Positions 25,076-57,479 of a DNA stretch of 64,000 nucleotides are shown here, piece after piece (the stretch's first letter is position 1; every line of letters starts with the position of its first letter). The notes beneath the pieces are model-generated. The model searched no databases. It was given only the letters and a program-made list of their open reading frames with translations, and was not told the origin of the DNA. This DNA comes from Candidatus Uhrbacteria bacterium (GTDB lineage: Bacteria > Patescibacteriota > Patescibacteriia > UBA9934 > GWF2-40-263), in contig JACPHT010000001.1 of assembly GCA_016188475.1 (NCBI GenBank), positions 138 through 64,137 on the forward strand. Reading direction: 5' to 3'. Both the position numbers and the translations under genes were made by a program.

Positions 25076-25364
25076 ATTGATTTTAGAATAGCCCTTAAAT
25101 GAAATTTAGCCAAGTAAGCGAAAGTAAAGATAGAGTGAAGAAGTGATGGAGTGATAAAATTCCTCCTCTTCCCGATGTGGAGTTAAAGAGCGATAGCAGG
25201 CAGGCAGGCAGCCACCCGCCAGGCCTTTAGGCCTGACCCGGCTCCGACGGATTAGTTCCCACTGGAAAGTGGAGGGATTAAACAAAAAGACCCACCACCT
25301 TTGTGAAAAGGTGTGAGGGTCAGAGATTAAGAGGCAGCCAACGGCTTTAACCTTCGCGCTTGGG

Positions 25365-25901
25365 CTACTTGCGAACAAACAGAAAGCGGTTGCGAGCATC
25401 CCACCCGCCGTCGAACCAGCTGCGGCCGAAGATGCGCCTGCCGGAACCACTGTCCAGAACCGCGACACACTCGCCGTCGTCGTGCATCGCGAACGAGCCA
25501 AGAGCCACAATCCAGAACTGACGATGAAGGTCAGGACGTGCTTTCTGGAACGAATATGTTTCGATATGAGTCGCTGGACGATAGCCGAGCTTGTCCATCT
25601 CGGCTATTGCATCTTCGGACATTATCTCCCTGTTGAAATGCTTCACAAGGAAAACTTTGTCACCAACAGGAATGAGGTATTCGTTGGGGGAGATAGGCTT
25701 GACAGGCACGGAACCGACTGGAACGATGAGATCAAACACTCTGTCCACGAGATCAGGCTCTTTGATGAGCCTCCGCAAGTGATCGATCGTTCCATTGTGT
25801 TTGCGAAGAGCATTCACTATCACTCTTGTTAGCTCGAATACGAACCCGACAACAGAAAGCAACGTATCCAGATTCCAGTCTTTCCTTGCACTACGACTCA
25901 T
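25365..25901 (-). CDS. hypothetical protein in GC-rich island
   Basis: 178-aa ORF at about 50% GC embedded in a locally atypical segment; no motif recognised. Confidence 0.35.
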   Translation of the reverse strand: MSRSARKDWNLDTLLSVVGFVFELTRVIVNALRKHNGTIDHLRRLIKEPDLVDRVFDLIVPVGSVPVKPISPNEYLIPVGDKVFLVKHFNREIMSEDAIAEMDKLGYRPATHIETYSFQKARPDLHRQFWIVALGSFAMHDDGECVAVLDSGSGRRIFGRSWFDGGWDARNRFLFVRK

Positions 25902-26008
25902 GACAATTCTCCAATTTTTGGCCTGCCTTTCATCCCAACACCATGCCGAGACTTAAGGCTCGCCAAGAAGATATCATTTCAAAAAATAACGATCTTGTCA
26001 ATCCACCA

Positions 26009-26142
26009 CCTCGACCGTTGAAATACCATGTTCGTAAGCTAAATTTTATTCCCTGAGCCTATCGAAGGGAATAATGTACAAAAAATAATATTTACTGCCT
26101 TCGATGTTGCTCAGGCAATAATTAGAGTTTTTCAACGGTCCC
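26009..26142. repeat. composite palindromic element with two CCTGAGC-TCGAAGG cores in opposite orientation, flanked by CCTCGACCGTTGAAA / TTTCAACGGTC inverted repeats
   Basis: Cores at 26051-26070 and 26095-26114 match the family found in leuS, trxB, truB and intergenic sites. Confidence 0.6.
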
Positions 26143-26395
26143 TCACCAACTAAAATAAAAAGGGGGTGCGGTGAAGCACCCAAAGCAGAGAGAATGATTG
26201 TCCGATGGGACTAGATGATTTCGAGCTCGCACCCATTCTTCTGGAAGACAGAAGCGCTTTGATCAGACCTCGAGGACTGACGCGGCACTGCGGACGTATA
26301 TATTTTATCATAAAATATGACATACTTCAGTAAAAATAGAAGAACTGGGGATAATTCAAAACCGCCCTACGTTGTTCGAAGAGCGGTTTTTATTT
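26143..26395 (+). ncRNA. candidate structured small RNA ending in an intrinsic terminator
   Basis: No credible ORF; hairpins GGGUGC-GGUGAA-GCACCC and CUUCUG-GAAGA-CAGAAG; motifs CUAGAUGA and ACAGAAG that loosely recall RNase P RNA CR-IV/CR-V; ends with ACCGC...GCGGT hairpin plus TTTTTATTTTTT. Confidence 0.2.
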
Positions 26396-34112: not shown

Positions 34113-34673
34113 TTATTTACTGCTCCAAATTTTACTTTCTAATTCCATCCTTGAAGGCTGATGATATTTTGCTCGGATGCACTGTACACGAAAGTCTTGT
34201 TCAATCCAACCGAGCTGACCAGAATCAACCAAATCCAATAATTCATCGAGTGTTACCCAACGAATTTGAATTTTTTCTCCGGCGTCAAGATTCTGCTCTT
34301 GCATGGAACTGCAGTCACGCGCCACATAAACAAAAATACTCCAATCCATTTTGTGAGACGGTTCAACTGAATGAAACAAACTCCAATCTTCAGAAACAAA
34401 ACCAGATTCCTCAAGCAGTTCTCTTTTTGCGCCATCAAGCGTCTCTTCGTTTTCTTCAATTCTTCCACCCGGTAAACATAAAAATGGAGGTTTCCCTGGT
34501 TGTTCTTGTTCTTGCAACATTATTTTTCCGTCTTTTGTCGCAATTATCTCGGCAGTGTCAGCCCGTTTTAGCATTTCAAAAGTTTCGATTGTTCCGTCGA
34601 ACATTTCTTGCGGCCATTGATATACATCAAACAAGACCCCCTCAAAAACCCGCTTAGCTTTTTCTGGAATCAT
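34113..34673 (-). CDS. NUDIX hydrolase
   Basis: Nudix box LPGGRIEENEETLDGAKRELLEESGF. Confidence 0.8.
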   Translation of the reverse strand: MIPEKAKRVFEGVLFDVYQWPQEMFDGTIETFEMLKRADTAEIIATKDGKIMLQEQEQPGKPPFLCLPGGRIEENEETLDGAKRELLEESGFVSEDWSLFHSVEPSHKMDWSIFVYVARDCSSMQEQNLDAGEKIQIRWVTLDELLDLVDSGQLGWIEQDFRVQCIRAKYHQPSRMELESKIWSSK

Positions 34674-34675: not shown

Positions 34676-37078
34676 TTATTTCACAACAATACTTACGATT
34701 CGTCCCTTCACATAAACAACTTTTTCAACTGTCTTACCTTCCAGATATTTTTTAACTTTTTCGTTTTCGAGAGCCAACTGTTTTGCAATTTTTTCTTCAA
34801 CATCAGGAGAGATTTCTAAAATTCCTCGAACTTTTCCATTCACCTGAACAGCGACCGAAATGATTTCCTCTTTTGCCAGTTCTTGATTGTGTATTGGCCA
34901 ACTTTGTTGTTCAAGAAGTTCTTTTCCACCAAGTTGTTCATGAAGTTCGTTTGACAGATGCGGCGCAAATGGACAGAGTAAGCGCAAAAATATCATAAAA
35001 CTTTCTTTTGAGATCGATCCGTTCTCTTTTGCCGCGTTCACAAAAATCATCATCTGCGAAACAGCTGTGTTGAAATGCATGTGTTCAATATCATCCGTGA
35101 CTTTTTTGATTGTTTGATGAAGTAAACGAGTGATCTTTTCTACTTCCGACTTTTCAGACCTTTCAGACTTTTCAGACCTTGTTGCCACATCTCCAACTTT
35201 CTCCAAAAACCTTCTCATACCAACAAGTCCGTTCATGCTCCACGGAACAGGTTCACCAAATGGACCCATAAACAATTCATACAAACGGACTGAATCAGCT
35301 CCGTACTCACTTACCATTTCATCTGGATTCACAACATTGCCTTTTGACTTCGACATCTTTGTTCCATCTTCTGCCAAAACAAGACCATGGCTTGTTCGCT
35401 TAGCATAAGGTTCGCTCACAGCAACATGTCCGCGATCAAACAAAAACTTATTCCAAAAACGTGAGTACAAAAGATGAAGTGTTGTGTGTTCCATTCCGCC
35501 GTTGTACCAATCAACAGGCATCCAATGTTTTAATTTTTTCTTGTCCGCAAACACTTTTTTATTTTTTGAATCAATGTACCGTAAAAAGTACCAACTTGAT
35601 CCTGCCCAATTTGGCATTGTGTCTGTTTCGCGTTTGGCAGGACCTCCACACTTTGGACATTTTGTATTTACCCAATCATGAATCGCGGCAAGAGGCGACT
35701 CGCCATTTTCTGTTGGTTCGTATTTTTCAACATCAGGCAATTGCACAGGAAGTTGTTTTTCTGGGACCGGAATCCACCCACACGCTTCACAATACACAAG
35801 TGGAATCGGCTCTCCCCAATACCTTTGGCGTGAAAAAACCCAATCACGAAGTTTGTATTGAACAGACTTTTTCCCGCCAGATTTCTCAATCGCTTCATCA
35901 AATGAAATGAGCGATCTGTCAACAATCGGTAGCCCAAACTTTTCAGCAAACTCACAATCTCGCTTGTCATGTTGAGGAACAGCCATCACAGCTCCTGTTC
36001 CATATTCACCCAAAACGTAATCAGCGACCCACACAGAAATTTTTTCTTTGTTTGCCGGATTGATGACAAACACGCCTGTTGGAACTCCTGTTTTTTCTTT
36101 ATTCTCTGCCTCGCGTTCTTTTTTATCTCGCTTGAGCGCTTGTTCAATATATCTTTTAACTTCTTCGCTCGACCTCCAACCATCTGCGATCCATTGTTGA
36201 GCTAACTCCGGAGAAATCACCAAAAACGTCGCGCCTAGAATTGTGTCAGGGCGAGTTGTGAAGACCTCGATCGACTCAACATCAGGAGATTGCTTCGCAG
36301 AGTTTACCATGAGCGAAGACAAATTTAAGCCTTCGACAGGCTCAGGCAATAAATTTGTCGAAGTCGAATGACTCACAATGACAAAACTGATTTTCGCTCC
36401 TTCGCTTTTTCCAATCCAATTTTTTTGTTGCGTTTTTATTTTTTCCAAATAATCAACTGTGTCCAAATCTTCCAACAACCGATCCGCGTATTTTGTGATC
36501 GCGATCATCCATTGCGCTTTTTCACGCTTCTCGGTCGGCCCGCCGCAACGTTCGCATTTTCCATCAACAACTTCTTCATTTGCCAAACCGATCTTGCACG
36601 ACACACACCAATTGATCGGCATCTTTGCTTTGTACGCAAGTCCTTCTTTGAAAAATTCCAAAAACATCCACTGCGTCCATTTGTAATATCCAGGATCGGT
36701 CGTATTCACTTCACGAGACCAATCAAAACTCAAACCAAACGATTGAAGTTGACGCTTGAACGTCGCGATATTTTCCGCTGTAACGTCTTGTGGTTTGCGT
36801 CCTGTTTTGATCGCGTAGTTTTCTGTTGGAAGTCCAAACGCATCCCAACCGATTGGATACAAGACATTGAAACCTTCCATTCTCCGCTTGCGAGCAACAA
36901 CGTCCATTGCCGTATAACTTCTCGGATGGCCCATGTGGAGTCCAGCGCCTGACGGATATGGAAATTCAATCAAACAATAGTACTTTGGTTTTTTTGATTT
37001 ATCTTGCGCTTGAAAAACACCGGCTTGTTCCCAGCGCTTCTGCCACTTTTTTTCAATTTGCTTGTGATTATAAGGCAT
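34676..37078 (-). CDS. leuS: leucyl-tRNA synthetase, carrying an in-frame palindromic-element insertion
   Basis: MPYNHKQIEKKWQKRW start; HMGH and KMSKS class I motifs; ORF track extends to 37105. Confidence 0.95.
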   Translation of the reverse strand: MPYNHKQIEKKWQKRWEQAGVFQAQDKSKKPKYYCLIEFPYPSGAGLHMGHPRSYTAMDVVARKRRMEGFNVLYPIGWDAFGLPTENYAIKTGRKPQDVTAENIATFKRQLQSFGLSFDWSREVNTTDPGYYKWTQWMFLEFFKEGLAYKAKMPINWCVSCKIGLANEEVVDGKCERCGGPTEKREKAQWMIAITKYADRLLEDLDTVDYLEKIKTQQKNWIGKSEGAKISFVIVSHSTSTNLLPEPVEGLNLSSLMVNSAKQSPDVESIEVFTTRPDTILGATFLVISPELAQQWIADGWRSSEEVKRYIEQALKRDKKEREAENKEKTGVPTGVFVINPANKEKISVWVADYVLGEYGTGAVMAVPQHDKRDCEFAEKFGLPIVDRSLISFDEAIEKSGGKKSVQYKLRDWVFSRQRYWGEPIPLVYCEACGWIPVPEKQLPVQLPDVEKYEPTENGESPLAAIHDWVNTKCPKCGGPAKRETDTMPNWAGSSWYFLRYIDSKNKKVFADKKKLKHWMPVDWYNGGMEHTTLHLLYSRFWNKFLFDRGHVAVSEPYAKRTSHGLVLAEDGTKMSKSKGNVVNPDEMVSEYGADSVRLYELFMGPFGEPVPWSMNGLVGMRRFLEKVGDVATRSEKSERSEKSEVEKITRLLHQTIKKVTDDIEHMHFNTAVSQMMIFVNAAKENGSISKESFMIFLRLLCPFAPHLSNELHEQLGGKELLEQQSWPIHNQELAKEEIISVAVQVNGKVRGILEISPDVEEKIAKQLALENEKVKKYLEGKTVEKVVYVKGRIVSIVVK
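36290..36395. repeat. palindromic element inserted in-frame in leuS
   Basis: GATTGCTTCGCAGAGTTTACCATGAGCGAAGACAAATTTAAGCCTTCGACAGGCTCAGGCAATAAATTTGTCGAAGTCGAATGACTC; near-identical copy in trxB; encodes NLLPEPVEGLNLSSLMVNSAKQS in LeuRS. Confidence 0.8.
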
Positions 37079-37094
37079 ACTAAATTTTAGACCT

Positions 37095-37185
37095 TGGTCT
37101 GTCATCCTGAGCCCTTCGACTTCGGTAAAGTTATCGCCTGAGCCTGTCGAAGGCCATAACTTTACCTTCGCTCAGGGTATAAACT
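37095..37185. repeat. palindromic element copies (reverse orientation) upstream of leuS
   Basis: CCTGAGCCCTTCGAC and GGTAAAGTTAT-CGCCTGAGCCTGTCGAAGGCC-ATAACTTTACC. Confidence 0.7.
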
Positions 37186-37352
37186 CCGTGAAGAATCTTT
37201 TGTTTAGAAGATCATTCGCTACGCTCAGAATGACTGAAACGCAATTCATTATTGATCCTATCACGGCGATCATAACAAAAATACGAACCGTTGACAAAAC
37301 CGAATGATTTTGATATCTTAAAAAGCCGTCACACAAAAGAATAGGAGGCAGA

Positions 37353-41663: not shown

Positions 41664-41680
41664 ATAGTGCGCAATTTCAC

Positions 41681-41819
41681 TTAACGGCCGGCGGCTGATC
41701 CGAAGTAAAAAGACACCTGACGTTTTTATGTTACAGGTGTCTTTTTATTTTGGATAGCCGCCTGTTGTGCGACGTCGCTTTGCGACGGAGCGCAACAGAG
41801 GCGAAGCCGCCGGCATAAC
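41681..41819. repeat. cassette-junction element, copy 1 (short variant)
   Basis: TTAACGGCCGGCGGC...AAAAAGACACCTG-acgtttttatgtta-CAGGTGTCTTTTT...GCCGCCGGCATAAC. Confidence 0.85.
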
Positions 41820-41882
41820 GTTTGCGTGTATGCGGTGTGGCGTCAGCCATATCGTATACACGCTGTTGTACGGAGTTTGGGC

Positions 41883-42065
41883 TTATCCTTCTCTTGCTTC
41901 TCTTTCTGCTTCGATTTTTTCCAATATCTCTCGTACTTTTTCAGGAGACGCACCAAGCTCTTCGAAGAATCTTACTTGGTCCGATGGAGGAATGGCCATT
42001 AATTTATCCAGGGCATCTTTGGCCTCAGACTCTTGAACTTCATGCTCTCGTGGTTGTTCTCTCAT
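41883..42065 (-). CDS. cassette-encoded small acidic protein
   Basis: 60-aa ORF flanked by attC-like palindromes. Confidence 0.3.
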   Translation of the reverse strand: MREQPREHEVQESEAKDALDKLMAIPPSDQVRFFEELGASPEKVREILEKIEAEREAREG

Positions 42066-42211
42066 ATGTTTAACTTGTTACTGATAAATAGCTAATGTTT
42101 AAATAATAGGATAAGACCAAATTTCGTGCAACGTTCGCGTATGATCCGACGTGATCGACCAGAGGGAGATCATGTTGGATATACGCTGTTAAGCGCCGTA
42201 CTCATTAACAA

Positions 42212-42448
42212 TTACATCGAAGAAAACGGGTCTCCGCATTGAGGACACCTGTCTGAGTTAACTAATCCGTAACTGGTTTTGCAATTTGCGCAATATACAT
42301 TTGCTGCACTTGTACGTCCGTTGGGATCTGGAACCATGGGCACTTTGCATTGAGAGCAAAGCAACTCATTACTGCCAGCGACGGCGGCAATATCAACTGT
42401 ACTATTGCATTGTGGACATTTGTACCCAAAAAATGAACCTGTTTGCAT
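42212..42448 (-). CDS. cassette-encoded zinc-ribbon protein (four CxxC pairs)
   Basis: CPQCN...CSQCK...CANCK...CPQCG. Confidence 0.5.
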   Translation of the reverse strand: MQTGSFFGYKCPQCNSTVDIAAVAGSNELLCSQCKVPMVPDPNGRTSAANVYCANCKTSYGLVNSDRCPQCGDPFSSM

Positions 42449-42466
42449 ATTTTTTCTTATTAAGAA

Positions 42467-42982
42467 TTAGGAACCTATATAAGTTGCAGTGATGTTTCCT
42501 TCTCCCTCGGCTGTGGATTTTGTGCCAGGTTTGAAAAATGTAGGCTTGGTTGTTTTGATGCCAGTTACATTACCTTTGCCTCTAGCAGTGTGTTCGCCGT
42601 CGATGGTAGTAATGAGAGAATTTAAACTTTTGTTCAAATTCTGGGTGGCCCACTCTTCATGCTCTTTTTTCCATTGTTTTAGTTGATCTACAGAGAAATC
42701 AATGCCATTATTTTTGTCGATCATATCAGCACAATTTGAACAAAGAAAAATACCATTATTTGTAGATTTTCTCTGTTCTGATGTTAAGTTTGAGTCATAT
42801 CTTGGGCCACCCTCTGCCGCAGCGGTTATATGGGCTGCTTTGCCTATGTATATAAATTTGTCCTCATTTTCTGCTGATGGGCAAAGTGTCAAATTTTTGC
42901 AATCAGGATTTGAGCAGATATAGGAGGCCCGTTTTCCTATTGCTTCAACTGTATTTTTATCAAATTCGTCTCGAGTTGACAT
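42467..42982 (-). CDS. cassette-encoded HNH endonuclease-like protein
   Basis: CSNPDCKN...AAHI...NGIFLCSNCADMID resembles the HNH beta-beta-alpha-metal motif. Confidence 0.45.
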   Translation of the reverse strand: MSTRDEFDKNTVEAIGKRASYICSNPDCKNLTLCPSAENEDKFIYIGKAAHITAAAEGGPRYDSNLTSEQRKSTNNGIFLCSNCADMIDKNNGIDFSVDQLKQWKKEHEEWATQNLNKSLNSLITTIDGEHTARGKGNVTGIKTTKPTFFKPGTKSTAEGEGNITATYIGS

Positions 42983-43007
42983 AATTTTGTATGTTAATGG
43001 GTATGGC

Positions 43008-43179
43008 GCTTAACGGCCGGCGGCTGATCCGAAGTAAAAAGACACCTGACGTTTTTATGTTACAGGTGTCTTTTTATTTTGGATAGCCGTCTGTTGTGCG
43101 ACGTCGCTTTGCGACGGAGCGCAACAGAGGCGAAGCCGCCGGCCGTTATGCCGATAGAGCAAAGCGATGTCGGCATAAC
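43008..43179. repeat. cassette-junction element, copy 2
   Basis: Near-identical to the other six copies. Confidence 0.85.
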
Positions 43180-43307
43180 GTCCCGCACTTTGCGATGTTT
43201 TGGCCTGTTATAATTTAGCACGAAGTGCTTGAACAGGCCAAAATATGGGCGTAGCGACTGAAAGGAGCGGAGCCGCAAAGTGCGTGTTAAGTGATGTTTT
43301 TATTTTT

Positions 43308-43931
43308 TCAAAGTATGCCAATTGGGCCGATTATTCTAAAGCCCTTCCGAATTGTTTCTTCGGTGTTGATTTCCCAGCACAGTGTCCCATTATAATCCAA
43401 GAATGAAACACCTAAAATTGCGTTATTTCGGGAGGGCGTTTTACTTGCTTTTTCTTGTATAGAATCAAAAATCTTCTTGGTCTTTCCCTTCATATTTTGA
43501 GGAAATTGTACCGGTTTTCTTTGTAGTTCATATGTGACTAAAAATTGCACAAATTTTTTCCAATTTGCTCGTTCACTTAGGAGTGCTCTACTAATGTTTA
43601 GTTCATCGCAGAGATTTTCAATGTTCGTTTTGAGCAAATGAAGGGAAAGACCTTCAATTACGGCGTCATTAATCCAAGTTCCTTCATTTGGATTTTTGTT
43701 ATGAGCGATCACCGCATCTGTTAAAAGTTCCAAAATTCTGAAAGCCGTAATTGAACCGGAGATTTTTGTGTGCAAGGCCCAATTGGCATACAAATTTAAG
43801 TATGGATATTTAGACTGGAAGCCTTTCTCTTCAATGATGTGCCGAAAGGCTGTCATTATTCGGAGGATATCATTTTTACTCCAATTACTATGCGAGAGTA
43901 ATTCTGTGATGTTTTTGATGTGATCTTCCAT
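43308..43931 (-). CDS. cassette-encoded hypothetical protein
   Basis: 207-aa ORF flanked by 27-bp inverted repeats that begin with GTTAAGTGA. Confidence 0.5.
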   Translation of the reverse strand: MEDHIKNITELLSHSNWSKNDILRIMTAFRHIIEEKGFQSKYPYLNLYANWALHTKISGSITAFRILELLTDAVIAHNKNPNEGTWINDAVIEGLSLHLLKTNIENLCDELNISRALLSERANWKKFVQFLVTYELQRKPVQFPQNMKGKTKKIFDSIQEKASKTPSRNNAILGVSFLDYNGTLCWEINTEETIRKGFRIIGPIGIL

Positions 43932-43949
43932 ACTTAAATTTGAAAAATA

Positions 43950-44035
43950 AAAATTTCACTTAACGTTTCGCGATATCCGACGTTTCGTAGAAATGTGGCT
44001 TTAGCCTTTACGGATATCGCGTGTTAGGCGAGGCT
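43950..44035. other. canonical attC-like site
   Basis: ACTTAAC-GTTTCGCGATATCCG...CGGATATCGCG-T-GTTAGGC: RYYYAAC and GTTRRRY boxes with complementary inner arms. Confidence 0.6.
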
Positions 44036-44064
44036 TCAGCTCTTGAGTTTGAATTTAAACTTTT

Positions 44065-44460
44065 TTAATATTTATCCTTAATGTATTTAAGAACTTCTAT
44101 ATCGTGGTCAATAATCTTTAGCTTGTTTATCTCGGAAAGATGAAACCAACCAAAATTTTGTCCTTCGCCTAAAGTAATTATTTTACTCGGATCAAATTCT
44201 TCCACAAAAACATGTTTTTCATTGGTTTCATCTTTCGACAAAAAATCTTGCTTCATTATCATCTTAGGGTTTTTGAGTGTGTAATTCAGCTCTTCAAGTG
44301 TTTCTCGCTTCACAGCCTGTTCTGGAGTTTCACCAGCTTCAATACCGCCACCGAAAAAAGCCCAATATCCAGGCAACCTTTCAGCATCTTCAGCACGATG
44401 TTGAAGTAAGATTTTTTTGTCTTGGTCGTATAAAATTATAATAGCTACGTTTCTCGCCAT
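44065..44460 (-). CDS. cassette-encoded NUDIX hydrolase
   Basis: Nudix box GGGIEAGETPEQAVKRETLEELNY; ORF flanked by 26-bp perfect inverted repeats TTTGAATTTAAACTTTTTTAATATTT. Confidence 0.8.
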   Translation of the reverse strand: MARNVAIIILYDQDKKILLQHRAEDAERLPGYWAFFGGGIEAGETPEQAVKRETLEELNYTLKNPKMIMKQDFLSKDETNEKHVFVEEFDPSKIITLGEGQNFGWFHLSEINKLKIIDHDIEVLKYIKDKY

Positions 44461-44518
44461 ATAGAAGTTCTTAAATGTTAAAATAAAGAAATATTAAAAA
44501 AGTTTAAATTCAAATTTC

Positions 44519-44690
44519 GCCTAACGGCCGGCGGCTGATCCGAAGTAAAAAGACACCTGACGTTTTTATGTTACAGGTGTCTTTTTATTTTGGATAGCCG
44601 CCTGTTGTGCGACGTCGCTTTGCAACGGAGCACAACAGAGGCGAAGCCGCCGGCCGTTATGCCGACAGAGCAAAGCGATGTCGGCATAAC
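44519..44690. repeat. cassette-junction element, copy 3
   Basis: Near-identical copy. Confidence 0.85.
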
Positions 44691-44921
44691 GTTCGTGTGT
44701 ATCTGAAGTTTTCATTCCGCTTCAATGGAATAAACTTTGATTATTAGATACACGCTTTTTAATAGAACCCCACCCAAATCCTCATCAAAACTAAGGGATG
44801 AAAATTTGGGCGGAGGAAAATTGGCACTCCTTAAGGATTTAATTAACGCCAATTTTCCATAGCCAGATACACGCTGTTATACGCTGTAATAAAAAGCCGA
44901 TTCGTTATTGATTTTGGCAAT

Positions 44922-45164
44922 TTATTTTTCTGTTTTGGAACCAAGAAATTTTCCCTCCACTACAACATCTTGTAATGCATTGAATAATTGAAGAACGCCG
45001 TTGCGGTGTTCCTCATTAACTTGAGGAAGTATTTCTTGAGTTAAACGAGCAAGACCTTCTGTAACTTTCCCTTTTGCATATTCTGGTAATGCTTTCATAT
45101 TGGGAGTCAATTCTACTGATAGCGAGGCTTTTGCGCCAACCTCTGGCCTGAATGTTTCTGTCAT
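44922..45164 (-). CDS. cassette-encoded hypothetical protein
   Basis: 80-aa ORF. Confidence 0.35.
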   Translation of the reverse strand: MTETFRPEVGAKASLSVELTPNMKALPEYAKGKVTEGLARLTQEILPQVNEEHRNGVLQLFNALQDVVVEGKFLGSKTEK

Positions 45165-45274
45165 ATTTTTTTAAGTTAATTATTACTTTGATTATACTAT
45201 GAGTTATACTCGACCGCTTCAAATAAATTGCCAAAATCAATATTCAAATTTCACAATCGGCTTTTTATTATGGC

Positions 45275-45446
45275 GTATAACGGCCGGCGGCTGATCCGAA
45301 GTAAAAAGACACCTGACGTTTTTATGTTACAGGTGTCTTTTTATTTTGGATAGCCGCCGGTTGTGCGACGTCGCTTTGCGACGGAGCGCAACAGAGGCGA
45401 AGCCGCCGGCCGTTATGCCGACAGAGCAAAGCGATGTCGGCATAAC
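45275..45446. repeat. cassette-junction element, copy 4
   Basis: Near-identical copy; terminator hairpin at 45303-45347. Confidence 0.85.
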
Positions 45447-45689
45447 GTTCCTGCGTATGCGATGTTTGCCAGTGGTATAATTGCACGAAGTGCTTACCAC
45501 TGGCAAATATGGGTGGAGGCTTGCGGAGGTACGAAGCAAGCCGTAACCGCATACGCAGTGTTATATGATGTACATGTTTTCCTTTAATTTCTGAAAGAAA
45601 TTGCTCTTATAAAAGAATCCGGTTTTGTTTTTCCGTTTGGGGCGAAGGGCAGAGGGGATTAAGGGGTGAATGCCCGAGCCCCAAACACT

Positions 45690-46298
45690 TTAATCTTCTT
45701 CACCCTCAATTCTTTTTCTGCGCTCATCTAGCGTTTCGCCTTCATACATCCAATAAGCTGTTCCTTGAATTCCGTAATCATAACCGAGAATTTTTTGTGC
45801 AGAAGAAGAAAGACTTGTAACTTTGCCATTAAAATTGATGGATTTATTATCAACCACATTTGCCTTAATGTTTTCATCGCGACTAAAAATTAATTCTGCA
45901 CCAACCGGAATGTTGACCATCTTAAAATTAAACTTAGCTCGCATTTCTGCACGTGCTTGATTTAGGGCATGCTGATCTTCTTTTGATTCCACGAAGTCTT
46001 TTTTAGGCGTAATATCTTCAATCTCTGCCAATTTAAGTGCAGAAACTACACGTTCTGGAGAGATTTGAAAAAATTCTCGTCTTGGATTTGTTCGGTTATT
46101 GTCAAATGCATCATGTAGCTGATGTTCAACAAAGGCTGCGTCTTTTACGGTACATGCGTAGAAACAAGTAAAAGGAAGTGGAACGCTCGTGGAAGCGCTA
46201 AGCTCTCTAATCCTTTGCTCAAGGCTTGTTGAAGTTTTGCCAATTTTTACATATCCAGGCATGGCTTCATTGATGAGAATGTAGATGATTTCAATCAT
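45690..46298 (-). CDS. T5orf172 (GIY-YIG-like) domain protein, second gene of the candidate defense pair
   Basis: IYILINEAMPGYVKIGKT...RIREL...PLPF...RREFF matches the T5orf172 pattern; start ATG overlaps the upstream stop (ATGA). Confidence 0.6.
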   Translation of the reverse strand: MIEIIYILINEAMPGYVKIGKTSTSLEQRIRELSASTSVPLPFTCFYACTVKDAAFVEHQLHDAFDNNRTNPRREFFQISPERVVSALKLAEIEDITPKKDFVESKEDQHALNQARAEMRAKFNFKMVNIPVGAELIFSRDENIKANVVDNKSINFNGKVTSLSSSAQKILGYDYGIQGTAYWMYEGETLDERRKRIEGEED

Positions 46299-48013
46299 AA
46301 TTTTATAGATTTATTTGGTGCTAAAAGTTCCTTAATTTTTGAAATTAAAGGTTTGAAATTCCCAAAAGTATCCGAGCTGGTTTCAGCTTGAACTTTATTT
46401 AAAAATTTGCCTTTATCGAAAGTGGTGATTGACGTAGTTGCACTATATGAGCCAGGTCTTACTTCCGTAGAGTAAACGTCATCTGTGAATAAGGTATCGG
46501 GGTATAGATTTTCAATGCCAACAGCTTTTCCATCTTTATCTTTAGCCTTTGTATTTGCAGAATTTTCCGCAAAGCAAAACTTTTTAAAGCTTTCTGTTTC
46601 TGTAATGCTGTTTATCATGGAGGCGCAGTCACAATCCCAAACAAAAAGGAACTTTCCGCTAAAATCACCGGACGACATTACGTCAAAAGCGTTTTTCAAC
46701 TGTTGCCCGCGCTTATCTGGCGAACCTTCTATAATTTTAATTTGACTAAGTAAAGTGTTGTCGAGGATTTCAAAAGCTTTTTTAATATGCTCTGTATTAT
46801 TTCCCTCCGTAACAATTTGTAAACTTTTCGTGCCATCAATCTCTTTTTGTATTTTTAAACCCTTTTCAAAGGTTATGATCCCCTCGCTTAAAAGGTTAAT
46901 AGCGTCTCCCTGTGATATTTTTCTGATTTTTTCATTTTTTTTGCCCTTCTGTATCTCAAATAGTGATTCTTCATATGCTAATGCGACCGTGGTCGGAGAA
47001 TGGGTAGCAAGAATAACCTTACAGCCGTTTTTTATGAACACATTTTGAATCACATCCAATAAATCTTGAATCATGGATGGATGAAGTGATGCATCTACTT
47101 CATCAAGAAGTAACAATGCAGGAAATTCTGATTTGTTATCTTGATAAACTGTAATAGCCAGTGCGCACAATATCTTTTCACCCGATGACAAGTCTTCAAA
47201 ATCAATTTCTTCATCATCTATGGAGAGTTTTACTTGAAATGATACAGCTTGACTATTTATCAGATCTCCAGCTGTAAATTCTGGATGTGAAATAGTATGA
47301 AGTAGCCCAAACTCTTTAAACATGCTGTTTACAAAATTCCATGGAGATTGTTCTTCTATTTTTTTGATTTGGCTATCGTTTAATCCTTCTCCGCCGTCGC
47401 TTTCTCTTAATTTTGCCACGGTTAGTTTTTTTTGATAATCAAGAAAAACTTCGCTTAAACTTTCTAGAAGCTCGTACTCATCTGGGCTGTAGTTTGAAAA
47501 TTTAAAAAATTCTGCCTGTGTGATTTCCGAAGCGTATTTAACAGACTCGAATACGCCCGTTTTTAAAAGCTTCTTAATTTTGGGATTATCTTTTGTATGC
47601 TTATTTATAAAGGTTAGAATATCCTTTTTTTGTTCAGCGTATTTTTGTTTTTGTGCTTTTGGCACTTCAAAATCATAGGGGTACTCCTTTTCGCCCACGA
47701 ATGTTTTAATTTGATTGTCGTAATTTTGGAATTGTTGCCTTTGAGAATTTAAGATATTCCACGCTTGCATTTTTTCATCATCAAGATTCCGTGGGGCAAT
47801 TTTAGCCTGGTTCTTTATGAGAAATGTTTGTAGGTTAAAGTACGAAATCCTTTCTTTTTGTATGTTGTCAGCTGAAACAAAGCCCTCTTGCATCGCCTTG
47901 AGCAAGTGAGTTTTTCCAGCGCCGTTTACACCTAGAAATATCGAAAAGTCCTTAATATCAATTTCACTAAAGTTGGCGATTGATTTATGTTTTTGATTGA
48001 ATTTAATATTCAT
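46295..48013 (-). CDS. OLD-like ABC-type ATPase fused to a C-terminal TOPRIM-like nuclease domain
   Basis: Walker A GVNGAGKTHLLKA, ABC signature LSSGEKI, Walker B LLLLDEVDASLHP, H-loop ATHSP; C-terminal IVTEGNNTE ... FVWDCDC resembles TOPRIM Glu and DxD. Confidence 0.6.
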   Translation of the reverse strand: MNIKFNQKHKSIANFSEIDIKDFSIFLGVNGAGKTHLLKAMQEGFVSADNIQKERISYFNLQTFLIKNQAKIAPRNLDDEKMQAWNILNSQRQQFQNYDNQIKTFVGEKEYPYDFEVPKAQKQKYAEQKKDILTFINKHTKDNPKIKKLLKTGVFESVKYASEITQAEFFKFSNYSPDEYELLESLSEVFLDYQKKLTVAKLRESDGGEGLNDSQIKKIEEQSPWNFVNSMFKEFGLLHTISHPEFTAGDLINSQAVSFQVKLSIDDEEIDFEDLSSGEKILCALAITVYQDNKSEFPALLLLDEVDASLHPSMIQDLLDVIQNVFIKNGCKVILATHSPTTVALAYEESLFEIQKGKKNEKIRKISQGDAINLLSEGIITFEKGLKIQKEIDGTKSLQIVTEGNNTEHIKKAFEILDNTLLSQIKIIEGSPDKRGQQLKNAFDVMSSGDFSGKFLFVWDCDCASMINSITETESFKKFCFAENSANTKAKDKDGKAVGIENLYPDTLFTDDVYSTEVRPGSYSATTSITTFDKGKFLNKVQAETSSDTFGNFKPLISKIKELLAPNKSIKL

Positions 48014-48192
48014 AGTTTACTTCAAGTGTGGAAATCACAAATTGGCGTTATTTTACTCCGTTTCCTCCTATAAATAAATCGTTTTCGGAGCGGAGCGTAG
48101 AAAACTCCTTATTTCCCCTCTATAAAAAAAGAAAAACAAAACCGGATTCTTTTTAAGAGCTTGGCGAAGCCAAAAAGGAAAACATGTATTTC

Positions 48193-48340
48193 ATATAACG
48201 GCTGGCGGCTGATCCGAAGTAAAAAGACACCTGACGTTTTTATGTTACAGGTGTCTTTTTATTTTGGATAGCCGCCTGTTGTGCGACGTCGCTTTGCGAC
48301 GGAGCGCAACAGAGGCGAAGCCGCCGGCCGTTATGCCGAC
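48193..48340. repeat. cassette-junction element, copy 5
   Basis: Near-identical copy (CGGCTGG variant at the left arm). Confidence 0.85.
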
Positions 48341-48481
48341 AGAGGCGGAACAAAAATTTGGGAGAAGGAATTTTTCTTACCTTGAATTATAAATGTGAAA
48401 AATTCCTGAACCGGATATGCCGTGTTGTGCGATGTCCGCATTTGCCCGCCCTTGTTAGTTGGAAATGGATGCCCCGAAATC

Positions 48482-49060
48482 TTATTGCAAAATCTTTTCC
48501 AATAGTTCAGGAAACTCCTCGGTTTTCATATCGCCCAAGCAGTAATGACCTCGCCCTTTTAGCTCGACAATCTCGCCACCAAGCACCTCATGAAAAATTT
48601 TTAAACTTTTTTTACCGTCTTCCTCCTCGTCGTCCGCAGTGAACATAACTATTTGATTTATCCTATCCTTGATAGACGAGTCAATCTGATATGTATAGAA
48701 ATTTACATCGGTACCACTTCTTTTTTCTTGCGGAATTTTCCAAGGCGCGACTAAAAAAAGTTTAAAAATTTTGGTCTTAGTCTCACTAAGCCAGCGAACC
48801 AAGAAGGCGCAACCGCAACTATGTCCAACTAAAATTGTGTTTTCATCAACAGTATATTTTTCAAATTCAGCCTTAAATTTTTCATAATCAGGTTGCCAAG
48901 GCGAGGGCATGAGAGGAGTTTCCGTTTCAATATTTTTTGCAATAAGATTTCTTTTTAACCACGGAATCCAGTGCTTGTCATAAGTCCTTGTTTCAGGATT
49001 CATCGCTTTTTCAGCATCAGAGGGGCATCCATGGATTATGATACATCTATTCTTTGTCAT
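48482..49060 (-). CDS. cassette-encoded alpha/beta hydrolase (RBBP9/YdeN-like serine hydrolase)
   Basis: IIIHGCPS ... LVGHSCG nucleophile elbow. Confidence 0.55.
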   Translation of the reverse strand: MTKNRCIIIHGCPSDAEKAMNPETRTYDKHWIPWLKRNLIAKNIETETPLMPSPWQPDYEKFKAEFEKYTVDENTILVGHSCGCAFLVRWLSETKTKIFKLFLVAPWKIPQEKRSGTDVNFYTYQIDSSIKDRINQIVMFTADDEEEDGKKSLKIFHEVLGGEIVELKGRGHYCLGDMKTEEFPELLEKILQ

Positions 49061-49325
49061 ATGGTTGAATGTTATTTTTAGCACTAGGGCAAATGCGGAT
49101 TTCGCACAACGTATCCAAATATCTGAAGTTTCGCACTTTGGTTTTAAGGCTAAAATCTTTGATATCCAGACTATTTTGTTAGTTTAATTATACTATACAT
49201 TATCACAAAACGGAAAAGTGCGAAATTTGGGTCGAGAAAATTTTTCACTCTTTATTATTTCTAATAAATGAAAAATTTTGGAGCCAGATATTTGGTGTTC
49301 AACGATGTTGCGAGGATTTTCGTTT

Positions 49326-49547
49326 TTATTTCTCAGAATGTTTTAATTTAATCAAATCATATATTGCAGAAACGGTAAAAATAATTTGCAAAATAATAAA
49401 TATTAAATCGCTTAGGTAAATACTGTATATTTCCAGGCATACTCCGCCAACAATATACATCAAGTCCTGCGTACGACGATTTTTATTTATAATGCCAGCG
49501 GATATTAATAATAATCCGACCGCGCCTATCATCTTAAAAATTGACAT
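49326..49547 (-). CDS. cassette-encoded small membrane protein
   Basis: About 73 aa; three hydrophobic helices. Confidence 0.4.
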   Translation of the reverse strand: MSIFKMIGAVGLLLISAGIINKNRRTQDLMYIVGGVCLEIYSIYLSDLIFIILQIIFTVSAIYDLIKLKHSEK

Positions 49548-49594
49548 ATTATTTTGCAAATTATTTTGTTTTCAGGAAAAAATCCTCGCAATTT

Positions 49595-49700
49595 CGTTGA
49601 ACGTTCACCGATAAGCGAAGTTTTATTGAGCAAAGCGAAATAAAATTTGCGAAAAACTCGGGCTGAGAGTTTTTCCGCTTATCGCGTTGTTATACGCCCC
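49595..49700. other. attC-like site
   Basis: TTGAAC-GTTCACCGATAAGCG...CGCTTATCGCG-T-GTTATAC. Confidence 0.55.
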
Positions 49701-49758
49701 GAGCGAAACGAAGTGTAGCGAGAGCGCAGCGTGGTGCGGAGCGTAGCGGAGCAAGTTG

Positions 49759-53212: not shown

Positions 53213-54319
53213 TTATTCCCGTGAGAGCCACCTCTCAGCATCAAGAGCGGCAACACAACCCGAACCGGCGGCTGTGACAGCTTGGCGATAATACGGATCA
53301 ATCACATCGCCTCCAGCAAATACTCCTTCAACACTTGTTTTTGAAGTGTTTGGTTTCACAACAATATATCCTTTGCGATCAAGTTCAAGTTGATTGACAA
53401 ACAAATCTGTGTTTGGTTGATGTCCAATCGCGACAAACAATCCATCAGCGGAAAAATCTGAAACAACGTTTGTGACATTATTCAAAACTCGAACTGCATT
53501 CATTCTTTTTCCATCGCCTAGAACCTCTTGAACTTCTGTGTTAAACATAAATCCAATCTTCGGATTCTTCATCGCTCGCTCCTGCATAATCTTTGACGCG
53601 CGCAACTCATTTCGTCTGTGTATCACTGTTACTTTGCTTGCAAAATGTGTAAGAAAATTCGCTTCCTCCATTGCCACGTCTCCGCCACCAACCACAATAA
53701 CGTGCTTGTCCTTGAAAAAAAATCCGTCACACGTTGCGCATGCGGAAACGCCGCGACCTTGATATTCTTTTTCACCTGGAACATTCAACCACAATGCTTT
53801 CGCGCCAGTACAGATAATAATCGCTTGGCTTGAATATACCGCTTCGTTTGTTTTTACAATAAATGGTAAAGATTGCTTCGCGGAGTTTACAATGAACGAA
53901 GATAAATTTATGCCTTCGACAAGCTCAGGCAATAAATTTGTCTGGGTCGAATGACTCGAAATGATATTTTTTTGTTCGACAAGCTCAGGCAATAAATTTA
54001 TAGGAGTCAAAGGGCTCGTAGTGACGGTCTTTTGTCGAGCGGAAAAATCAACTGAAACCACATCGTCGCTCACAATTCGAGTTCCAAATCGTTCAGCTTG
54101 TTTCTTGAAACGTTCCATGAGTTCTGGTCCAATTAACCCTTCTGGAAATCCGGGAAAATTTTCAACTTCGTTTGTTAACATCAACTGCCCTCCAGGCTGT
54201 CCGCCAATCTGTTTTCCTTCAAACAAAAGCGGTCGCAACTGCGCGCGCGCCGCGTAAATTGCCGCCGTATATCCAGCCGGACCAGAACCGATAATGATAA
54301 GATTTTCTGACGTACTCAC
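53213..54319 (-). CDS. trxB: thioredoxin reductase carrying an in-frame palindromic-element insertion
   Basis: GSGPAGYTAAIYAARA FAD motif, CATC redox site, GGGDVAMEEA NADPH motif. Confidence 0.9.
   Translation of the reverse strand: MSTSENLIIIGSGPAGYTAAIYAARAQLRPLLFEGKQIGGQPGGQLMLTNEVENFPGFPEGLIGPELMERFKKQAERFGTRIVSDDVVSVDFSARQKTVTTSPLTPINLLPELVEQKNIISSHSTQTNLLPELVEGINLSSFIVNSAKQSLPFIVKTNEAVYSSQAIIICTGAKALWLNVPGEKEYQGRGVSACATCDGFFFKDKHVIVVGGGDVAMEEANFLTHFASKVTVIHRRNELRASKIMQERAMKNPKIGFMFNTEVQEVLGDGKRMNAVRVLNNVTNVVSDFSADGLFVAIGHQPNTDLFVNQLELDRKGYIVVKPNTSKTSVEGVFAGGDVIDPYYRQAVTAAGSGCVAALDAERWLSRE
53872..54010. repeat. palindromic element (one full copy plus one partial copy) inserted in-frame in trxB
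   Basis: Cores GCCTTCGACAAGCTCAGGC at 53912-53930 and GTTCGACAAGCTCAGGC at 53974-53990; encodes NLLPELVEQKNIISSHSTQTNLLPELVEGINLSSFIVNSAKQS. Confidence 0.8.
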
Positions 54320-54338
54320 AAAATATAGAAATTATATT

Positions 54339-54357
54339 GCCTTCGACAGGCTCAGGC
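54339..54357. repeat. palindromic-element core in the trxB-trxA spacer
   Basis: GCCTTCGACAGGCTCAGGC flanked by ATTATATT / AATAATTT. Confidence 0.6.
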
Positions 54358-54365
54358 AATAATTT

Positions 54366-54677
54366 TTAGATATACTTCTCCAATTTTTCTTTCAACTGAT
54401 CTTTGCTCATTGTTCCTGAAAATTGTTCAACTGGTTGACCGCCTTTGAAAATGATAAAAGTAGGTATAGATAAAATGTTATATCTCTGCGCAAGTTCCGA
54501 ATGATCATCAACATTCACTTTTCCAACTTCAACTCCTTCAATCTCACCAGAAAGCTGTTCAACGATCGGACCCATGATTTTACATGGCCCGCACCACGGA
54601 GCCCAAAAATCCACAAAAACAGGTTTAGCAGATTGTAAAACGATTTGATCAAAATTTTCAGTCGTGAGTGATAACAT
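54366..54677 (-). CDS. trxA: thioredoxin
   Basis: WAPWCGPCK active site. Confidence 0.9.
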   Translation of the reverse strand: MLSLTTENFDQIVLQSAKPVFVDFWAPWCGPCKIMGPIVEQLSGEIEGVEVGKVNVDDHSELAQRYNILSIPTFIIFKGGQPVEQFSGTMSKDQLKEKLEKYI

Positions 54678-56759: not shown

Positions 56760-57479
56760 ATGAATGGATTTTTGCTTATCAATAAACCGGAAGGACCGAC
56801 ATCTCATGATATTGTTGATTCTGTACGTAGAAATATCCAACCTCCGACTTCCAACCTCCGACTTCCGAAAGTTGGGCATGCCGGAACGCTTGATCCTTTT
56901 GCATCTGGACTTTTAATTGTTGGCGTTGGACGCGAAGCAACGCGTGAAATGCAAAAACTTGTTGGTTTAGATAAAACTTATGAGGCAGTGTTTGTTTTGG
57001 GAGCTTCATCTGATACTGATGATAAAACTGGGAAAATAACTTTGGTCCATCCACAAGAACCTTTGACGCAAGAACGTGTTCAAGAAGCTCTCAAACAATT
57101 TATTGGTGAAATAGAACAAACGCCACCGGTATATTCCGCGATAAAAATAGGCGGAAAAAAAATGTACGAAGCCGCTCGTGAAGGAAAACCAATAGAAGCT
57201 AAAGCAAGAGAAGTGACGATATATTCCATGAGCGAAGTCCAGTTTATCCCTTCGACTAGCTCAGGGAATAAACTGGACAAAGTCGAACGGGCGACTATCT
57301 CTTTAACCATTCACTGCTCATCCGGCACATATATCCGCGCGATCGCGCGAGATCTTGGGCAGGTGCTTGGCACTGGCGGATATGTTGAATCTCTTCGTCG
57401 AACAAAAATCGGACCGTTCGATATTTCTGAATGTAGCGAGTCAATTATTCCAATAAGTGCCTTTTTATCGAGGCTTTGA
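56760..57479 (+). CDS. truB: tRNA pseudouridine(55) synthase, carrying an in-frame palindromic-element insertion
   Basis: MNGFLLINKPEGPTSHDIV..GHAGTLDP..; ORF track extension to 56556 overlaps infB and is not translated. Confidence 0.85.
   Translation: MNGFLLINKPEGPTSHDIVDSVRRNIQPPTSNLRLPKVGHAGTLDPFASGLLIVGVGREATREMQKLVGLDKTYEAVFVLGASSDTDDKTGKITLVHPQEPLTQERVQEALKQFIGEIEQTPPVYSAIKIGGKKMYEAAREGKPIEAKAREVTIYSMSEVQFIPSTSSGNKLDKVERATISLTIHCSSGTYIRAIARDLGQVLGTGGYVESLRRTKIGPFDISECSESIIPISAFLSRL
57210..57300. repeat. palindromic element inserted in-frame in truB
   Basis: CCATGAGCGAAGTCCAGTTTATCCCTTCGACTAGCTCAGGGAATAAACTGGACAAAGTCGAACGG; stem arms changed compensatorily relative to the leuS copy. 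Confidence 0.75.

Follow-up and report, generated by a model that had tools for sequence, protein, structure and literature searches.

An in-frame palindromic repeat in the leucyl-tRNA synthetase gene of a Candidatus Uhrbacteria genome

RESULTS

leuS contains a 32-codon insert within its editing domain

The DNA analysed here, referred to throughout as the window, is a 64-kb stretch of a Candidatus Uhrbacteria metagenome-assembled genome (MAG; candidate phyla radiation) with a GC content of 41%. The sources of the closest homologs, and of an identical TrxB, bear this organism name. Its leucyl-tRNA synthetase (LeuRS) gene, leuS, occupies 34676..37105 on the minus strand and encodes an 809-aa product in one intact frame, in which Pfam recognises the tRNA-synt_1, LeuRS editing and Anticodon_1 domains. 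In the orthologs the protein begins at the position of the ATG at 37078 (MPYNH...), and the gene start listed at 37105 may therefore lie too far out on the upstream side. Inside this frame lies a composite palindromic element (copy A, 36287..36382, minus strand) whose 96 nt form 32 codons of LeuRS, V242-S273 (VIVSHSTSTNLLPEPVEGLNLSSLMVNSAKQS). The peptide SHSTSTNLLPEPVEGLNLSSLMVNSAKQSPDV is found directly ahead of SIEVFTTRPDT, and nine residues separate the insert from the TTRPDT motif. Both flanks are collinear with LeuRS sequence. When the protein is aligned with T. thermophilus LeuRS, residues 11-243 pair with 3-236 and residues 279-395 with 243-359, and therefore 35 query residues replace six Thermus residues at the insert site.

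An earlier note, made from the DNA sequence alone, had already proposed an in-frame palindromic repeat within leuS, and this was borne out: dispersed copies, inverted repeats and the quoted peptide are all present. The note had drawn the element at 36290-36395 with about 35 residues; while the insertion itself stands, its limits are now set at 36287-36382 and, at 96 nt, it adds 32 residues. Just one of the six frames of copy A is free of stops, and leuS reads exactly that frame. The insert peptide is presumably translated, with a near-neutral effect on the enzyme. The tryptic peptide expected from read-through of the insert is ISFVIVSHSTSTNLLPEPVEGLNLSSLMVNSAK.

An AlphaFold model of the protein (mean pLDDT 87.7; TM 0.79-0.84 against solved LeuRS structures) bore out the suggestion of a surface loop. 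The insert appears in it as a low-confidence loop, with pLDDT below 50 across residues 247-271, that caps a beta-hairpin between strands 233-243 and 278-283. The site falls within the CP1/editing domain, in its first beta-hairpin; the earlier note was right to put the insert upstream of TTRPDT, but it is not strictly ahead of the domain. The predicted surface loop would make the insertion site compatible with the LeuRS fold. The repeat most likely adds a floppy 32-residue loop, and in the model the flanking strands appear undisturbed.

The element is a hairpin nested within a short palindrome

The leuS element is an imperfect palindrome, built of a 10-nt perfect inverted repeat with nested 8-nt and 16-nt ones. 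The central hairpin of copy A (36318..36359) has the stem GACAAATTTA.GCCT / AGGC..TAAATTTGTC and the loop TCGACAGGCTC, and includes the conserved 17-mer CCTTCGACAGGCTCAGG (36330-36346, plus strand). Folded as DNA, copy A gives a 14-bp stem and an 11-nt loop (z = -3.3 against shuffled sequences), and the other copies of the element form the same hairpin. The outer arms of the composite correspond to a REP-like short palindrome of 26-39 nt, GTCATTGCGAG...GCAATC, at whose centre the second hairpin is nested, with a variable stem of 10-15 bp and the invariant core CCTTCGACARGCTCAGG. The ends of the whole element (GAGATTGC... and ...GCAATGAC) are terminal inverted repeats of about 8 nt that are imperfectly complementary, and those of the short module are GTCATTGCGAG and CGAAGCAATC. 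Among the loci fetched we found 30 distinct short modules of the form GTCATTGCGAG-N(4-24)-GCAATC.

As a MAFFT alignment of the copies was structurally inconsistent, each copy was folded separately, and in 12 copies the hairpin was maintained despite differing stem sequences. The closing base pair among 139 unique core copies was G-C in 65 and C-G in 63. A fixed-register outer stem is weakly supported in this set (0.46 paired versus 0.39 when shuffled) because architectures differ between copies. The compensatory changes in the stems could reflect self-correction of the palindrome instead of selection.

Further copies lie in and between genes of the window

Searching the window with the leuS segment (blastn, nhmmer) revealed three full and five partial copies of the element within 64 kb; E values of the repeat copies ranged from 1e-33 to 1e-36, well outside what chance would give. 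The match in trxB (53861-53976) is 88% identical over 95 nt (E 6e-26 in blastn, 8e-35 in nhmmer), and that in the leuS leader (37090-37206, on the other strand) is 81% identical (E 1e-18 and 3e-33). Other places in the window that match GATTGCTTCGC with one mismatch appear to be chance occurrences.

In trxB the in-frame insertion totals 168 nt, or 56 codons, relative to the empty site of the MAG DeMMO2_27 (53867..54034, minus strand), and consists of short-palindrome arms, the full copy B (53870-53965) and a half copy, B' (53975-54025; its match in the window search spans 53975-54035). The 5' leader of leuS holds the composite copy C (37101..37198, minus strand; 98 nt), in the orientation opposite to copy A, and the last bases of this copy contain the in-frame ATG at 37105. 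Just upstream of it is a separate short hairpin module, gtcattctgagcgtagcgaatgatc (37210..37234, minus strand). The remaining copies are a partial copy D in truB (57224..57290, plus strand), read in the other orientation as ...MSEVQFIPSTSSGNKLDKVE... and common to the window and DeMMO2_27, a core-only hairpin E in the trxA-trxB spacer (54335..54366, plus strand), and two intergenic core hairpins, F on the minus and G on the plus strand (26043..26123), which sit in approximately 1 kb without a counterpart in a syntenic relative. One of six frames is open in copies A and B and in the intergenic copy C alike, and both full in-gene copies, A and B, use this single frame. The lengths of the in-gene insertions, 96 and 168 nt, are multiples of three.

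Relatives preserve different states of the insertion sites

The comparison of orthologs that the earlier note had called for agrees with the insertion in leuS being confined to a narrow group: among 103 Patescibacteria LeuRS, the insert is common only to the closest (P0001, 90% identical), and the next-closest (P0002, 85%) and most others are without it. The loop G236-T283 is 46 aa long in the window LeuRS and P0001 only, with modes of 17 and 22 across the 103 orthologs, nine of which have short-palindrome peptides at this site. Protein-level conservation among orthologs, which would have spoken against a mobile repeat, was not what we observed; the match is at the nucleotide level and spans the non-homologous loci trxB, leuS leader, truB and spacers.

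At the nucleotide level the leuS composite is common to the window and locus L001, where 9 of 96 nt differ and the whole gene is 87% identical. The independent MAG DeMMO2_27 (JGI 3300038439 / JAGVFR01) has the insertion at the same codon with nine substitutions, and the frame has been preserved through the roughly 13% nucleotide divergence since the split from this sister MAG. The next relative, L002 (the P0002 locus), has at this site a 33-nt short palindrome only, in opposite orientation. We rejected nucleotide-level constraint on the central 52 nt that are identical in the window and L001, as the same gene alignment includes identical runs of 95, 54 and 51 nt, and 9 of the 96 insert positions differ, compared with 13% across the gene.

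The trxB site exists in three nucleotide states, namely empty (L108), a 39-nt short module (L107) and the 168 nt of the window, in which the composite is nested between the short-module arms. The window and L107 share the short module and L108 does not have it, yet L107 and L108 form the slightly closer pair; therefore precise loss, recombination or independent gain is required. No target-site duplication longer than 1 nt was found at the trxB short-module site. A GAACA/GAACA pair flanks an insertion in L002 and is ambiguous as a duplication. Copy C and hairpin E are specific to the window, being absent from both relatives compared. When the trxB insert was searched with HMMER against the full set of 1.84 billion representatives, the single match (E 3e-6) was to an unrelated tandem-repeat protein, and so the long composite peptide appears restricted to this lineage.

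The core is widespread in Patescibacteria

The 17-nt core occurs in many classes of Patescibacteria. Its 23-nt extended form (core plus SAATAA) was found in at least 104 GTDB genome stretches, nearly all from Patescibacteria, against 0.07 expected by chance. Adding the window, L001 and L002 to the GTDB stretches gives 115 extended-core copies, of which 32 (28%) fall in frames that run for 150 aa or more without a stop. Genes bearing the core encode, among others, LeuRS, PolA, DnaK, Tgt, MurD, MnmA, a UvrD-type helicase and LCP, as well as QueA, which was recognised by eye from its sequence, without Pfam. One Saccharimonadales LeuRS carries the core at the same loop. GC-rich versions were present in at least 120 IMG/VR contigs. 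Intergenic copies were distributed over tandem (45), divergent (15) and convergent (11) spacers in proportion to spacer length, and this census showed no bias to gene 3' ends; we rejected a terminator or 3'-end role for the hairpin because of this lack of positional bias. A full-text search returned no relevant literature on the motif as DNA, RNA or peptide, or on MITEs of the candidate phyla radiation.

DISCUSSION

Origin of the leuS insert

On balance, the leuS segment is probably one copy of a palindromic repeat that is selfish and non-autonomous and has spread within this Candidatus Uhrbacteria lineage. leuS would tolerate it because it landed in a permissive surface loop and in the one frame of the element that lacks stops. 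A short palindrome may first have settled at the tip of the first CP1 editing-domain beta-hairpin, where several orthologs keep only that, and the 96-nt composite would then have arisen there by insertion into the palindrome centre or by conversion from another composite. The composite would already have been present in leuS when the sister MAG DeMMO2_27 diverged, with the frame kept since. The leuS mRNA would be read straight through, giving a probably disordered loop of 32 residues, 9 upstream of TTRPDT. We infer that the element is itself mobile; it may move through an enzyme that is specific for hairpins or ssDNA and acts in trans, or through template switching from one palindrome to another. 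Several observations weigh against this reading, among them the short and imperfect terminal inverted repeats, the lack of a target-site duplication above 1 nt at trxB and the uneven distribution of the trxB short module. In the window, moreover, neither a transposase nor a RAYT-like gene was recognised when 10 unassigned ORFs were scanned and the others were inspected by eye; the 10 yielded only an integron-type tyrosine recombinase, a T5orf172 protein, an AAA_21 ATPase and RecO.

A history without transposition into leuS is rather unlikely, but deserves consideration. Here a short palindrome already present in the leuS loop would have been turned into the composite in situ, through template switching or short-patch recombination with the 11-15 nt arms as homology. 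The leuS and trxB composites do lie exactly between short-palindrome arms, relatives have the palindrome alone at these places, and the 1.5-copy layout of trxB (B' plus B) resembles a product of slippage or recombination; the missing target-site duplication at trxB and the lack of a visible transposase in the window point in the same direction. However, homologous recombination would have little to work with in arms of 11-15 nt, and copy C and hairpin E occupy sites that are palindrome-free in the relatives, which means de novo arrival for at least some copies. We give a lower probability still to a signal selected by the host, such as a protein-binding site, a site for the stability or processing of RNA, or a sequence of the DNA-uptake type, whose in-gene copies are tolerated or useful. 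An invariant 17-nt core flanked by stems that vary while keeping their pairing would suit such a role, as would its occurrence across Patescibacteria classes and in viral-database contigs and the copies in the leuS leader and trxA-trxB spacer. Against this, copies favour neither 3' ends nor any type of spacer, occur in both orientations, match no Rfam family, and come and go at otherwise conserved sites between genomes that are about 85% identical. At about 1 per 8 kb they are also much sparser than uptake sequences.

Two further explanations would deny the insert a place in the enzyme or in the genome, and both seem very improbable to us. The segment might be removed before the mature enzyme is formed, through programmed DNA excision or because it is an intein or an intron-like RNA element, leaving LeuRS without the extra peptide, and the stable hairpin could in principle serve as a processing signal. 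Inteins, however, have at least approximately 130 aa, with splicing blocks and nucleophilic residues at their junctions, and self-splicing group I and II introns are structured RNAs of at least about 200 nt. The earlier note had itself named an intein or intron as grounds for abandoning its reading; at 32 aa the insert is far too short for an intein, and at 96 nt, with no match to an Rfam covariance model, we reject a group I or II intron. Rfam gave no match to the whole window at gathering thresholds, and for the element, with E up to 10, one chance-level miRNA match only (E = 9.3). In-gene lengths divisible by three, a frame kept across 13% nucleotide divergence, and the use of the single stop-free frame by both full in-gene copies, which would be irrelevant to a segment that is removed, argue in the same direction. 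As repeats often cause misassembly in MAGs, a chimeric join could also have put the element inside leuS by an artefact of assembly or binning; this carries the smallest probability of all, since the insertion recurs at the same codon, with nine substitutions, in the DeMMO2_27 MAG from another project, and both flanks are collinear LeuRS within one intact 809-aa frame.

Returning to the selfish palindromic repeat, a broader proposal can be made tentatively, and we would not wager on it at even odds. A modular system of nested hairpin repeats, so far undescribed, may exist throughout Patescibacteria and perhaps also in DPANN archaea and in GC-rich bacteria or the viruses of these; in it the 17-nt core CCTTCGACARGCTCAGG would be invariant across phyla while the stems covary. 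Its modules would settle time and again in the middle of older palindromes and so give essential proteins (LeuRS, TrxB, TruB, QueA, PolA, DnaK, Tgt, MurD and MnmA) new peptide loops. If true, this would imply a widespread and unrecognised machinery for hairpin-specific mobilisation or copying, and would make protein-coding palindromes a general trait of ultra-small genomes rather than an oddity of Rickettsia.

Coding palindromes now have an example among ultra-small bacteria, a free-standing radiation unrelated to Rickettsia, and the element itself looks unrelated as well. The Uhrbacteria case lends weight to the view that such insertions can become fixed because genomes are reduced and populations small. 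The trxB and leuS series, from empty site through short palindrome to nested composite, form a natural time course that could make the mechanism testable. The repeats also lengthen universal marker proteins such as LeuRS, making phylogenomic misalignments likely, and yield spurious 'hypothetical proteins' in MAGs (PSTSSGNK, LRQAQ and LLPEPVEG peptides).

Comparison with known palindromic repeats

REP/BIME sequences, including REPs inside genes such as those for replication and repair (Di Nocera et al. 2013, PMC3733652), resemble the short module alone, which is likewise a many-copy imperfect palindrome of 26-39 nt, and their units also combine into mosaics. The ends of the short module, however, are without the GTAG or CGTC tag as defined in PMC3733652, and no RAYT (HUH/Y1 transposase) was recognised in the window. 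Moreover, REPs lie mostly outside genes and downstream of them, whereas around 28% of core copies lie in long ORFs and the intergenic ones show no such downstream preference. Bacterial MITEs with in-frame insertions, namely intragenic ERIC (Delihas 2007) and the Coxiella QMITE (PMC5896051), are similarly small, multicopy and without a transposase, differ in presence between close relatives, and occasionally lengthen proteins by peptide segments through in-frame fusion. Unlike these, the leuS element has no terminal inverted repeats of 15-30 bp. In its family a target-site duplication is at most 1 nt long (trxB) or ambiguous (L002), and the 10 unassigned ORFs scanned in the window include no parent insertion sequence. 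Mitochondrial genes of Nematomorpha (PMC6649704) also hold hairpin-forming inverted repeats within translated sequence that are gained and lost between species, but those palindromes are long, perfect and made in situ, whereas the leuS element belongs to a dispersed family with a conserved core.

The closest parallel is with the Rickettsia palindromic elements (RPEs; Ogata et al. 2000, 2002; reviewed in PMC10969869), whose hallmark the earlier note had seen in this insert. Both are dispersed palindromic repeats with a conserved open frame, of 96-98 nt here and about 100-150 bp in RPEs, that lie in frame at fold-compatible sites in unrelated housekeeping genes (here full copies in leuS and trxB and a partial one in truB), have intergenic copies as well, inhabit a reduced-genome host and have no known transposase. 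They differ in that the leuS element is a nested composite, with a REP-like palindrome carrying a second hairpin, that its 17-nt core reaches far beyond one genus, and that the host belongs to another phylum (Patescibacteria). The phenomenon is thus of the same kind, and membership does not follow: because the organism is Candidatus Uhrbacteria and not Rickettsia, the leuS element is an analogue rather than a member of the RPE family. Likened to RPEs by its features and not by sequence, it may best be regarded as an RPE-like, protein-coding palindromic repeat of a separate family.

The insert in LeuRS

The leuS gene (34676..37105, minus strand) encodes an 809-residue protein with Pfam matches to the class I synthetase core, LeuRS editing and anticodon-binding domains. 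In an alignment with T. thermophilus LeuRS (1H3N), residues 11-243 match 3-236 and the next aligned block, 279-395, matches 243-359, leaving 35 residues in place of 6 at the insert site. The peptide quoted in an earlier note on this DNA is found there, immediately N-terminal to SIEVFTTRPDT. The in-frame element that the note described is likewise present, but comparison with other copies sets its extent (copy A) at 36287-36382, 96 nt or 32 codons (V242-S273), rather than the claimed 36290-36395 and about 35 residues.

We modeled the protein with AlphaFold2 and 103 sequences (mean pLDDT 87.7, pTM 0.84; TM 0.79-0.84 against solved bacterial LeuRS structures). N-terminus aside, residues 247-271 are the only segment with pLDDT <50; strands 233-243 and 278-283 flank them. 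From this, the insert is predicted to form a disordered loop that extends the tip of the first beta-hairpin in CP1, the editing domain. This agrees with the loop location that the note had proposed to check by modeling. Its placement just before TTRPDT and CP1 holds in that the final insert residue lies 9 residues ahead of TTRPDT, but the predicted site is within CP1.

Further copies and a common hairpin

Searching the window with the copy A segment (blastn and nhmmer) gave two additional full copies: copy B within trxB (53861-53976; 88% over 95 nt; E 6e-26 and 8e-35, respectively) and copy C, on the strand opposite to copy A (37090-37206; 81%; E 1e-18 and 3e-33). Partial copies lie at 57224-57290, 53975-54035, 54335-54366 and 26043-26123. 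The leuS ORF as mechanically listed starts at an ATG (37105) inside the final bases of copy C; LeuRS orthologs have a start equivalent to 37078 (MPYNH...), and copy C is probably located in the leuS 5' leader, downstream of a TATGAT -10-like box and ahead of the true start. The stretch 25118-26147, about 1 kb holding a 178-aa ORF (25365-25901) and two core hairpins (26043-26123), has no counterpart in an otherwise syntenic relative (junction at L001 17806/17807).

The leuS element is an imperfect palindrome. Single-stranded DNA folding gave a central hairpin common to copies A, B, C, D (truB) and E (trxA-trxB spacer), with an 11-nt loop TCGACAGGCTC and a stem that is 14-15 bp long in copies A-D and 8 bp long in E, which is a core-only hairpin (z-scores -3.3, -1.2, -2.9, -3.2 and -3.2 for A to E). 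Rfam gave no family match, either for the whole window at gathering thresholds or for the element with E values of up to 10 allowed. In 12 copies from separate loci, folding gives 10-19 bp stems with the same loop and 12 different stem sequences, and among 139 unique copies the core is closed by a G-C pair 65 times and by a C-G pair 63 times, which together show that the predicted pairing is maintained. Such maintenance could be a requirement for propagation, or could arise through palindrome self-correction in replication. The composite (the full element of about 96 nt) has a single stop-free frame out of six, intergenic copy C included, and it is the frame used by both full in-gene copies, in leuS and trxB.

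Insertion states in related genomes

Among 103 LeuRS orthologs the G236-T283 stretch is mostly 17 or 22 aa; a length of 46 aa is confined to the window and P0001, whose LeuRS is 90% identical. The contig of P0001 (L001, MAG DeMMO2_27) is syntenic with the window at about 86-87% nucleotide identity and has the same 96 nt at the identical codon, with 9 differences. In the contig of P0002 (L002, 85%), the leuS site holds just a short palindrome of 33 nt, GAGATTGCTTCG...CTCGCAATGAC, in the opposite orientation. This is the ortholog alignment for which the earlier note had called. Peptides of the short palindrome (VIASEAKQS, EIASS..PRND) occur in the LeuRS loop of 9 of the 103 orthologs.

Residues 236-283 (window 36257-36400; orthologs P0001-P0120) are a hot spot of repeat-derived peptides across Patescibacteria, and further orthologs have other segments there that resemble repeats, CHPSSHIVISSAARDL and PPLPEGGLGGV among them. 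Some Patescibacteria LeuRS hold whole extra domains, NUDIX or alpha/beta-hydrolase (L016 5360-7999 and L052 4788-8000, both Saccharibacteria; also P0071, P0074, P0089 and P0101); in the window a NUDIX-type gene (34113-34673) is a separate ORF directly after leuS. Upstream of leuS, L002 has a different 114-nt insertion (2080-2200) with two inverted cores and GAACA on each flank, absent from L001.

The trxB gene (53213..54319, 368 aa) holds copy B and a half copy, read as ...VTTSPLTPINLLPELVEQKNIISSHSTQTNLLPELVEGINLSSFIVNSAKQS..., giving 57 residues at the insert site versus 1 in a solved thioredoxin reductase. A search through all 1.84 billion representative proteins gave no true match to the insert peptide. 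This gene is a clean three-state series: an empty site in DeMMO2_27 (L108, ...TTCGA/CCATTT...), a 39-nt insertion containing GTCATTGCGAGCGAAGCGAAGCAATC in locus L107, and 168 nt in the window, where 1.5 composite copies lie between both arms of the short palindrome of L107. No target-site duplication >1 nt is visible. An internal partial copy in truB, in the other orientation (...PSTSSGNKL...), is also present in DeMMO2_27, while copy C and hairpin E are missing from both relatives, so the lineage has old inherited copies as well as recent window-specific ones.

Beside trxB lies an integron-like array (41673-53202), in which a tyrosine recombinase (52372-53202; Pfam Phage_integrase, E 1.6e-44) adjoins seven palindromic repeats, nearly identical to each other and about 95 nt long, whose ends are attC-like (...TAAC... 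/ ...GTTGTGC), at 41673-41765, 43011-43102, 44497-44605, 45277-45357, 48172-48279, 50326-50410 and 52070-52153. Each repeat sets apart one or two small ORFs of accessory type (T5orf172, AAA_21/AbiEii-like ATPase, NUDIX-like proteins). In the relatives L107 and L108/L109, too, this recombinase adjoins trxB.

Distribution of the core

At least 104 stretches of GTDB species-representative genomes contain exact matches to the 23-nt extended core, CCTTCGACARGCTCAGGSAATAA (chance expectation 0.07). By record title, nearly all of the matches listed are Patescibacteria (Uhr-, Sacchari-, Portnoy-, Wolfe-, Doudna- and Jorgensenbacteria, Kazan, Parcubacteria); the others listed, by record label alone, are a few Gammaproteobacteria, one Armatimonadetes and one Nanoarchaeota MAG. 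With the copies of the window and of loci L001 and L002 added to these stretches, the total is 115 copies, of which 32 (28%) lie within stop-free frames of at least 150 aa versus 74% of random positions, so the element is depleted from genes, yet far from excluded. The hosts are ordinary housekeeping proteins by Pfam: UvrD/PD-(D/E)XK helicase, DNA polymerase I, DnaK, Tgt, MurD-like ligase, MnmA, an LCP protein and, twice, LeuRS, once from Saccharimonadales with the copy in the same loop before TTRxDT. QueA of DeMMO2_27, identified by eye from sequence, has an in-frame composite-derived segment.

Full-length matches to the 96-nt composite came only from the window and DeMMO2_27. At least 120 IMG/VR contigs (viral or putative viral) have the 17-nt core alone, CCTTCGACARGCTCAGG, mostly in a GC-rich context with GCGAAC directly after it; an inverted GAGCYTGTCGAA is often close by (L110-L189). 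This suggests a far broader, unnamed repeat superfamily that includes the core. An abundant REP-like family that is separate from this one, GTCATTGCGAG-N(4-24)-GCAATC (L014, L075 and other loci; window 37210-37234), has 30 distinct copies in the loci examined, up to 9 per 8-kb stretch and 3 within long ORFs.

Interpretation

An assembly artefact is excluded as the source of the leuS insertion because an independent MAG, DeMMO2_27, has the same one. That the segment is an intron or intein, which the earlier note held would count against its reading, is very unlikely given its size, the absent Rfam match and its frame usage. A host-selected signal is not supported, since neither the position nor the orientation of the copies favors one; intergenic copies are distributed by spacer length, with no bias to gene 3' ends.

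The best reading of the leuS insert is a putative selfish, non-autonomous palindromic repeat, which would be retained because its only open frame is the one in use and the loop is permissive. The composite may have formed by insertion at the center of a short palindrome already there, or by conversion of that resident palindrome from another composite copy. The likeness to Rickettsia palindromic elements (RPEs) drawn by the earlier note thus holds as an analogy, in frame and in a permissive predicted loop; the host is not Rickettsia, as the closest LeuRS and TrxB homologs are from Candidatus Uhrbacteria or Patescibacteria by source names (window GC 41%). Our literature search, whose incomplete coverage does not prove absence, turned up no such elements described from the candidate phyla radiation, while the type is documented elsewhere. 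We therefore file the leuS/trxB repeat as a new family, of a type known from in-frame RPEs (PMC10969869), intragenic REPs (PMC3733652) and in-frame MITE insertions (PMC5896051).
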